From: Escherichia coli
GTDB lineage: Bacteria; Pseudomonadota; Gammaproteobacteria; Enterobacterales; Enterobacteriaceae
Reading direction: 5' to 3' (one strand)
DNA: 64,000 bases
NCBI RefSeq assembly: GCF_045037415.1
Contig: NZ_CP173438.1
Shown here in pieces: positions 63,001 through 64,000 of the stretch (position 1 is the first letter of the stretch; the number at the start of each line of letters is the position of its first letter). The position numbers are program-made.

Positions 63001-64000
63001 CCAGTAAGCATTGTGTATTGGTTGATTCATGATGAGAGATCTCCGTTGATTTGGATTGACTTCACATCATTCATCAACGCGGTAAAACTTTACGGCATCC
63101 GGCATTGAGCAATGCTACAACTCTCTGATTAAGAGTGATTGAAACGGAACAAACCATCCCGGAACGAAAAGATAATCCTGCACACAGCAGCAAAACACGC
63201 AACAACAGCATGAATGGATTTAAAAACGACATGGACGACGAGAAAAGCCTGAAGGGAAAAGGATCCACAGAACATTCGAACAAAACACCAGAAACGCAAC
63301 CAGAACGCTTCCTGGCAATGCAAATCAACAACAACACCAAAACCTACAGCTTAACCACACAACTCAATCACAGAGCCGAATAGCGCACTTAAAACCTGTT
63401 TACAGATAACCCTGCCACAAGAACAAAAACCACCAATATCAGAATCGATTTTCTTATCCTGAAAACGTTACTTTTCAACACACCATAAAAACGATTAACC
63501 ATCGATAACGTAAATCTCATCTGAATCAAAACACCAGAACCAATCATCACGCTTTTTCTGAAAAGAGCCTTATGATAAAGATAATCACCTTGCACTGAGA
63601 AAAAACACCAGGGCCAGTTAATCATCTCATCAATCTCATCGTCACAAAATCATCCATAGAACCATTTAACAAAATCGTCGCAAGCACACCGTAAATCACA
63701 CCAGGTTATCTCAGTCGGATTTGCGTTTTTACATAAAGACACTTGTTTCAGATTAACGATCTAAAACACGAAAACTCAGAAAAGGTTAAACGTAACTTCA
63801 GCAAAATAGAATGCCATCTTGATTGCTTAAACAGGAAAGATTGTTTTGTGGCAGCATTAAACTGATTTTAATTTTCGTAAACACAGGAGTAACAATTTTA
63901 CCAAACTGGATGTGTATCAGACAAAGCAATGTGTATTGTAATGTTTAATGAAAACACTTTTAGAAGTGTTTATGAAAATACGTGTATGTCTGGTAAAACA

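Follow-up and report, generated by a model that had tools for sequence, protein, structure and literature searches.

An A/C-rich noncoding tract beside a YagK-family gene in Escherichia coli is part of a divergent intergenic region of integrative genomic islands

In a 64,000-nucleotide (nt) stretch of Escherichia coli DNA (contig NZ_CP173438.1; here called the window), a long A/C-rich noncoding tract at positions 63,031 to 64,000 lies upstream of a gene of the YagK/YfjJ family. A widespread family of integrative genomic islands has a divergent intergenic region, and we found that this tract is the form that the region takes in the E. coli lineage. The tract is noncoding, unstructured, and mostly weakly constrained, and it is bounded by constrained motifs. 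Its length is lineage specific; it is partly exchangeable for a gene cassette and has grown partly by internal duplication. The constrained sites lie at the two ends, with a ribosome binding site and a palindrome on the yagK side and repeats, a TATAGT-containing block, and the 12-mer ACTCTGGARTTA on the side of the island backbone. Our tentative reading is that the tract is a loosely constrained A/C-rich spacer inside a divergent control region, which is possibly also an origin.

The window is a pathogenicity island of the type found in uropathogenic E. coli (UPEC), with cnf1, hlyCABD, cdiBAI, dsdCXA, and cutCD aboard, and many complete E. coli chromosomes are 100% identical to it. We extended it past its right edge using the identical sequence NZ_AP022525.1 (locus L001; window coordinate = L001 coordinate + 50,199). 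The 970 nt under study (63,031 to 64,000) are the visible portion of a 1,708-nt gene-free interval. On the left, the tract starts directly at the start codon of a 243-amino-acid (aa) YagK/YfjJ-family gene, also annotated as "inovirus Gp2 family" (62,299 to 63,030, minus strand). On the right, beyond the window edge, the first coding sequence begins at window-equivalent position 64,739 on the plus strand and opens the backbone of a CP4-57-like island, which encodes a GTPase, an HTH/WYL regulator, DUF905, DUF932, antirestriction, RadC/JAB, and DUF987 proteins, CbeA/CbtA, and others. A preliminary description of the window, made from the sequence alone, had the tract running to the window edge with its upstream boundary out of view. 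The tract continues past the edge, and the boundary can now be placed: in an alignment of 11 islands, the conserved block is about 1,175 nt long and ends at about 64,204 (L001 ~14,005), ahead of the next gene at 64,739.

The proposal that the tract is noncoding was borne out on extension, with no coding sequence before 64,739 and no periodicity of substitutions. In the gene-free interval past the window edge, no open reading frame (ORF) of at least 100 aa was found. An 82-aa ORF at 63,135 to 63,383 is broken by 11-nt and 8- to 12-nt insertions or deletions (indels) in islands L003 and L005 and related loci, and the sole annotated ORF of the interval, a 57-aa hypothetical gene at 63,210 to 63,383, is likewise disrupted by indels in homologues. 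These indels are not multiples of three. Across ten diverged homologues, substitutions number 77, 79, and 79 by position modulo 3 (chi-square P = 0.98), and Pfam searches with the ORFs and ORF fragments of the tract gave no match (fragments E > 0.1).

Folding of the A/C-rich core as RNA was compared with that of shuffled sequences and gave z scores of -0.60 for the plus strand and -0.84 for the minus strand. RNAalifold results for the ten homologues showed a weak consensus structure, with -2 to -18 kcal/mol per block of 130 to 220 nt. An Rfam 15 scan of L001 11,500 to 16,500 returned nothing relevant at E ≤ 1, and at gathering threshold the only match in the window was ALIL in an IS3 element. 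The UPEC small RNAs (sRNAs) PapR and C271 (PMC4546395) were considered and set aside, as their primer and probe sequences are missing from the window and from all loci.

The preliminary description had called the whole of 63,031 to 64,000 A/C-rich. This holds for 63,100 to 63,780 on the plus strand (G/T-rich on the yagK-sense strand), which is the noncoding, G-poor core in composition profiles, and fails for about 63,780 to 64,000, where A+C is 0.47 to 0.51 and the DNA is AT-rich and built of repeats. In the core, A+C rises to 0.73 in 200-nt windows, compared with a mean of 0.509 (standard deviation, 0.048) for the window as a whole, and peaks at 0.79 in 100-nt windows, where G is 0.10 to 0.11. 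Across about 450 nt, G is 0.08 to 0.14 and C is 0.24 to 0.34, and the longest C>G run on either strand of 66 kb is found here (63,259 to 63,594; 336 nt with a C/G ratio of at least 1.8). Over 631 nt, the plus strand has a folding energy of -89 kcal/mol versus -161 kcal/mol for its complement. Across the 246 kb of E. coli DNA examined, A+C reaches 0.66 or more in a 300-nt window only in this tract, in its O157 homologue, and once in a second noncoding tract of the window at 36,184 to 37,293 (tract 1). The exact motif AAAACAC is present in 7 copies in the E. coli tract against 0.8 expected, while composition-matched shuffles give degenerate AAAACAC-type matches and periodicity at least as good as those of the core. 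With the matches at the composition-matched expectation and residual periodicity absent, we rejected a decayed iteron array. DNA curvature was also rejected, as the A-tracts have no 10- to 11-bp phasing (P = 0.2).

The conserved block was found in 1,878 of 5,426 complete E. coli genomes (35%), almost never annotated, and in four plasmid records. The tract had no match in phage records and no homologue in the K-12 islands CP4-6 and CP4-57. Conservation among ten diverged islands is 0.98 in two stretches only, the first 50 nt next to the gene and 63,481 to 63,544; the remainder lies at 0.70 to 0.93 with many indels. Between L001 and L002, third codon positions in the adjacent gene are 0.91 identical, as against 0.87 across the A/C core and 0.74 to the right of it. 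The A/C-rich 650 to 700 nt between the constrained ends evolve no slower than synonymous sites. The transition/transversion ratio of the tract (1.65) is the same as in its flanks, and because transitions dominate in both, the substitution spectrum proved uninformative about selection for A and C. The near-invariant stretch at 63,481 to 63,544 (...CACCATAAAAACGATTAACCATCGATAACGTAAATCTCATCTGAATCAAAACACCAG) stands out at 0.98 from flanks at 0.82 to 0.91 and has tandem CGAT(T)AAC half-sites 11 nt apart. An exact 24-mer from it was found in 0 of 100,044 species-representative genomes and once in IMG/VR.

Local alignment of the tract with itself showed a diverged direct duplication on the plus strand (copy 1, 63,169 to 63,221; copy 2, 63,404 to 63,452), which scored 36 against a shuffled null with a mean of 18.9, a standard deviation of 2.4, and a maximum of 26. 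The most A/C-rich segment, 63,217 to 63,515 on the plus strand (A+C of 0.66 to 0.70 in 10 of 10 homologues), is replaceable. Another common class of islands has a 1,154-nt cassette in place of these 299 nt, as seen at L020 1,678 to 2,831; L009 is of this type as well. On the cassette are a 177-aa plus-strand gene with a weak NikA-like match (E = 0.011) and possibly a small minus-strand ORF. In such islands the left half of the near-invariant stretch is missing, and the retained right half of the tract has an A+C content of only 0.56 to 0.60. A MOBP-type nick site, ATCCTG, picked by eye at 63,174 to 63,180, was rejected, as the homologues do not conserve it.

The gene at the left end encodes a protein with the HUH motif HYHVILLL and the tyrosine motif YLVKY. 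It matches Pfam YagK_YfjJ_C (E = 5e-35; 121.3 bits against a cutoff of 25.8) and REP_ORF2-G2P (E = 1.5e-9; 38 bits). RVDLRxP, HxH followed by LLLN, AWCSA, and YLxK are invariant in the family alignment, and H101, H103, and Y213 are invariant in 16 sequences. An alignment-based AlphaFold2 model of the 243-aa protein had a predicted local distance difference test score of 75 and a predicted template modeling (TM) score of 0.74. The best PDB matches in Foldseek were weak (E = 0.015 to 0.1; TM-score ≤ 0.3), comprising PrimPol, NS1 of minute virus of mice (MVM), and the origin-binding domain of adeno-associated virus (AAV) Rep, and the matches were mostly to HUH Rep nuclease or origin-binding domains and to the PrimPol fold.

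Directly upstream of this gene lies the best-conserved part of the tract, a leader or operator region at 63,031 to 63,130 (minus strand; its first 50 nt have a mean conservation of 0.98). It contains GGAG (ctcc at 63,041 to 63,044), 10 nt before the ATG, and the operator-like palindrome GGTAAAACTTTAC, of the form GGTAA-N4-TTAC, at 63,081 to 63,093, which is 51 nt upstream of the start codon. The window has four GGTAA-N4-TTAC sites against 0.45 expected, and three of them, at 35,563, 36,263, and 63,081, lie 50 to 80 nt upstream of the window's three YagK-type genes, one before each. Of 81 family loci, 7 (those of Marinomonas, Erwinia, Hafnia, and Limnobaculum among them) have the looser form GTAA-N4-TTAC in the 200 nt upstream; the background rate is 0.008 per 200 nt. 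The window also has a paralogous copy of the leader at 35,518 to 35,576 on the minus strand (76% identity over 63 nt by BLAST; nhmmer E = 9.6e-8), outside tract 1, where it precedes a degenerate YagK paralogue at 34,810 to 35,502. This paralogue is annotated as a 186-aa hypothetical protein and has RILLRLP, as well as EYH where the HUH motif is expected. For 44 codons ahead of the annotated ATG, its frame remains open and conserved, reaching a CTG/GTG. As this CTG/GTG is placed 10 nt after a GGAG leader like that of the 243-aa gene, the annotated start of the paralogue may be too far downstream.

At the other end, an AT-rich, iteron-like repeat cluster starts with ATGTGTAT, GAAAATACGTGTAT, and AAAACACTTAGTA at 63,899 to 64,000 (plus strand) and runs to window-equivalent ~64,079. 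The GC content is 0.27 to 0.29 at 63,880 to 64,080, and the Rep-like gene is about 900 nt away. GTGTAT is present in five copies against 0.07 expected, and GAAAATACGTGTAT is present in three, along with composite 28-nt repeats; the spacings are 19, 51, 34, and 48 nt. The copy number of the repeats varies between islands, which appears as indels in the alignment. For the composite AAAACACTTAGTA...AAAATACGTGTAT repeats (L001 13,740 to 13,880, equivalent to 63,939 to ~64,079), L003 has extra copies, and L005, L017, and L020 have fewer. Inside the cluster is a perfect 8-bp hairpin, AAACACTT-TTAG-AAGTGTTT (63,952 to 63,971), which is partly conserved, with one or two mismatches in several homologues. 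A conserved TATAGT-containing block is found on the backbone side, partly beyond the window. Cross-genus local alignment of the repeat and TATAGT block was not significant, and CCGACAT was found in 8 of 75 family loci against about 5 expected.

The 12-mer ACTCTGGARTTA is located just outside the window, at L001 13,983 to 13,994 (window-equivalent 64,182 to 64,193). Its core, CTGGARTTA, is found on the backbone-sense strand in 21 of 76 loci and on the other strand in 1, with a background of 0.018 per 1,300 nt. The exact 12-mer occurs once per matching family locus and always antisense to yagK (29 loci, from many Gammaproteobacteria). Its flanks are unconserved, and no consistent hairpin or conserved inverted repeat was found around it across the family loci. 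The distance from the 12-mer to the yagK start is 198 to 415 nt in 15 loci, 509 to 656 nt in Budvicia, and 902 nt in one contig, versus 1,093 to 1,164 nt in the E. coli type. The greater distance in E. coli implies about 800 nt of extra A/C-rich DNA between the two. Some E. coli islands have a G-to-T variant of the 12-mer. An exact ACTCTGGAGTTA match in hlyD (4,639 to 4,650, minus strand) is the only occurrence away from yagK in the E. coli sequences examined and is therefore probably due to chance.

We investigated the same region in other genera. The 243-aa subfamily is essentially confined to E. coli, and its next relatives share about 40% identity with it. Brenneria, Providencia, and a metagenome contig have the same layout, with a single intergenic region between the backbone and a divergently oriented yagK-like gene and with alpA coming after yagK; diverged E. 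coli islands also keep the gene order. Among 72 family loci from species-representative genomes of other genera, the median ORF-free length upstream is 515 nt and the upstream strand skew has a mean of 0.512 (standard deviation, 0.043). A skew of 0.60 is reached only by E. coli-type loci, Budvicia, and Tolumonas, and for the 700 nt upstream the distribution as a whole shows no shift (P = 0.58). YagK-family genes do not in general have a long A/C-rich tract. In Tolumonas osonensis (L079), five to six copies of GAAAAACACTT are repeated in tandem every 11 nt, 310 to 400 nt upstream of the yagK-like gene and oriented like the AAAACAC motifs of E. coli.

Tract 1 had been described as having the same position and composition as the tract at 63,031. 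The position is indeed the same: each tract lies upstream of a YagK-family gene and on the strand antisense to it. As for composition, the likeness is confined to a core at about 36,384 to 36,700 (plus strand), with A+C of 0.63 to 0.70; tract 1 overall is A-rich with equal C and G (0.17 each). A common origin of the two tracts found no support in alignment, the check that had been set to decide it: BLASTN with a word size of 7 and a profile hidden Markov model built from ten homologues found nothing in tract 1, and the only related sequence that nhmmer found in the window with this profile was the 60-nt leader element at 35,518 to 35,576. The sole sequence feature common to both tracts is the 13-bp GGTAA-N4-TTAC palindrome at equivalent positions, in tract 1 as GGTAATAACTTAC at 36,263 to 36,275, which is 80 nt upstream of a 188-aa YagK-type gene. 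Tract 1 has its own 88%-identical homologue elsewhere. In its distal part (36,890 to 37,123), the plus strand is G-rich and C-poor (C, 0.05 to 0.11), a bias opposite to that of the A/C-rich cores. In E. coli O157:H7 86-24 (L103 2,490 to 12,695), both tract types and both YagK-type genes are found in the order of the window, about 5 kb apart. This arrangement suggests that the two tracts of the window were probably parts of a single ancestral backbone that cargo (dsdCXA, cut, and others) later divided.

Under the reading that we tentatively favor, a spacer inside a divergent control region, regulators would bind the palindrome and the repeats and set the expression of the two divergent units, and the 12-mer would be the best candidate for a site of island-encoded machinery or a target of the HUH-like protein. 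The A/C bias would have no sequence-specific role; at most, it may make a rightward transcript unstructured and richer in C than in G, a good loading substrate for Rho that would insulate the two units from each other. Several observations weigh against this reading. Promoter prediction gave no confident promoter for either divergent unit (4 matches versus 6.3 expected). The near-invariant 64-nt block lies within the A/C core, which argues for at least one functional site inside the "spacer." In the most A/C-rich segment, A+C holds at 0.66 to 0.70 in the ten homologues despite 10 to 20% divergence; tract 1 has an A/C-rich core of its own that is not homologous, and the 246 kb of E. coli DNA contain no such outlier besides these two; and in other genera, a skew of at least 0.68 over 700 nt upstream was seen five times in the direction of the window and never in the opposite one. 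The stable composition, the second core, and the one-way extreme skew together give a hint that selection acts on the composition or on an oriented motif, AAAACAC for example.

A rival reading would give the repeats and the strand asymmetry a role. In it, the whole block would be an origin of island replication or transfer for the YagK-family HUH endonuclease, with AAAACAC and GTGTAT as iterons, ACTCTGGARTTA as the nick site, and the asymmetry between the A/C and G/T strands stemming from oriented iterons or a single-stranded intermediate. This is unlikely in our judgment. In its favor, the adjacent gene has the HUH and tyrosine motifs and the REP_ORF2-G2P match, with weak fold matches to Rep nucleases; repeats of variable copy number adjoin an AT-rich stretch (GC, 0.27 to 0.29); the 12-mer is strand specific across genera amid unconserved flanks; and AAAACAC is in excess, with tandem GAAAAACACTT iterons of the same orientation in Tolumonas. 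On the other hand, the spacing of the repeats is irregular, degenerate iteron matches and periodicity in the core equal those of composition-matched shuffles, the 12-mer has no consistent hairpin and is changed from G to T in some islands of E. coli, other islands do without part of the A/C core, and no nuclease activity is known for any YagK/YfjJ protein. The specific assignment of ACTCTGGARTTA as the YagK/YfjJ HUH recognition or nick site, with the block and its oriented AAAACAC/GTGTAT repeats as a cis-acting replication or transfer origin, is more doubtful still.

A role for the bias itself is proposed by a Rho barrier, in which the A/C-rich tract would stop plus-strand read-through between the yagK side (or the cassette gene) and the backbone promoter. 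The long C>G run, the low G and high C contents, and the weak folding of the plus strand relative to its complement are what such a barrier would have, and in cassette-type islands the right half of the tract, which is retained, comes immediately after a plus-strand gene. However, the common island type has no predicted plus-strand promoter upstream, the segment with the strongest skew is missing where the cassette gene is present, and the property follows from composition alone with no extra conservation; we consider a barrier distinctly unlikely. That the tract is decayed cargo, a functionless remnant of a former gene or cassette with an inherited composition, seems to us quite improbable. 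It diverges faster than synonymous sites, it is a site of exchange with alternative content, its minus-strand ORFs translate to hydrophobic, membrane-like peptides, and the extra ~800 nt are missing in most other genera, all of which would fit decay, but its ORF fragments match nothing in Pfam, substitutions show no period-3 trace, the invariant 64-nt block persists, and length and composition are kept in more than 1,200 genomes. Anti-sRNAs encoded on horizontally acquired DNA are a known class (PMC4104026), and a long unstructured A/C-rich plus-strand RNA might sponge G/U-rich Hfq-dependent sRNAs such as GcvB, like AgvB, the anti-sRNA from a prophage of enterohemorrhagic E. coli. ACAACAACAC-type runs and (ARN)4 motifs at 2.5 per kb versus 0.67 per kb in the window are in line with this. 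The duplex with the G/U-rich R1 region of GcvB (-35.1 kcal/mol) is, however, matched or beaten in 45 of the 152 background windows and in 21 of the 60 shuffled sequences, and no promoter or terminator is evident. Of the five orphan Hfq peaks listed for SpLE1/SpLE3 in O157 Sakai (PMC4104026, Table S2), four (EcOnc14, 40, 41, and 44) lie in a stretch without homology to either tract, the tract itself not being placed in Sakai. EcOnc61 and EcOnc64 each map to the 3' end of another gene, and the annotation shows no YagK-type gene close by. A sponge is thus very improbable.

The favored control region, possibly with an origin, resembles in layout the common regions of HUH-Rep replicons, such as the large intergenic region of the geminivirus and circovirus type and the double-strand origin of rolling-circle plasmids. 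There, as here, a Rep-like HUH gene reads away from a noncoding region that contains direct repeats and a short strand-specific sequence antisense to the rep-like gene, with other genes in the opposite direction. Unlike those regions, the E. coli region has a 12-mer without a conserved hairpin, irregular repeat spacing, and about 800 nt of A/C-rich DNA that has no counterpart in those origins, and it belongs to an integrated chromosomal island of tens of kilobases. The K-12 islands CP4-57 (yfjJ) and CP4-6 (yagK) share the YagK_YfjJ_C family and a backbone with the GTPase YfjP/YkfA, DUF932, antirestriction, and RadC-like proteins and a toxin-antitoxin pair of the CbtA/CbeA type. In CP4-57, however, yfjJ is co-oriented with intA-alpA-yfjI at 152 nt from yfjI, and in CP4-6 yagK is 271 nt from yagL. 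P4-type satellites and the pri-rep/ori modules of phage-inducible chromosomal islands are integrative, have a context of P4-type integrase and AlpA, and carry repeats beside replication-type genes; their iteron regions differ from the present one in that the tract has no similarity in phage records and the adjacent protein here is of the HUH type and not a primase-helicase. With Rho utilization (rut) regions the likeness is compositional only, consisting of a plus strand that is C-rich, G-poor, and unstructured over several hundred nucleotides.

Islands of the intY-alpA-RadC-YqaJ-"inovirus Gp2-like" type in Pseudomonas integrate at tRNA or transfer-messenger RNA genes and carry cargo and defense genes, and the Gp2-like protein, AlpA, and RadC have been proposed as their core genes (bioRxiv 10.1101/2024.08.29.610337). 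They differ in genus, the preprint mentions no noncoding region or cis element, and the jumbo-phage transduction route that it describes does not explain a cis site. In other papers, "inovirus Gp2 family protein" appears as an annotation only, and in the literature we found no description of the noncoding block, the palindrome, the repeats, or the 12-mer.

These islands carry virulence, defense, and toxin-antitoxin cargo in about a third of sequenced E. coli. Looking like a low-constraint spacer, the A/C-rich tract matters little on its own. The value lies in three short, statistically solid cis elements, namely, the palindrome, the variable repeat cluster, and the cross-genus 12-mer, which offer direct and cheap handles on the roles of the HUH-like protein and the island regulators. 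If the reading as a nick site and origin were true, the AlpA-YagK-RadC-CbtA "cryptic prophage-like" islands would be rolling-circle-replicating or self-mobilizing elements, and the origin would serve a very common and mechanistically unexplained class of islands.

Two further observations concern the surroundings of the tract. From L001 14,005 on, islands L002 to L005 and L015 to L020 differ from L001, with assorted hypothetical genes on either strand. This variable content after the conserved block suggests that the DNA between the control region and the GTPase gene is a hotspot for cargo insertion; searches of the tested neighboring cargo proteins with PADLOC and Pfam gave no match. Within the window, the ALIL match is a pseudoknot at 56,285 to 56,401 on the minus strand (117.6 bits), the frameshift element of an IS3-family transposase.

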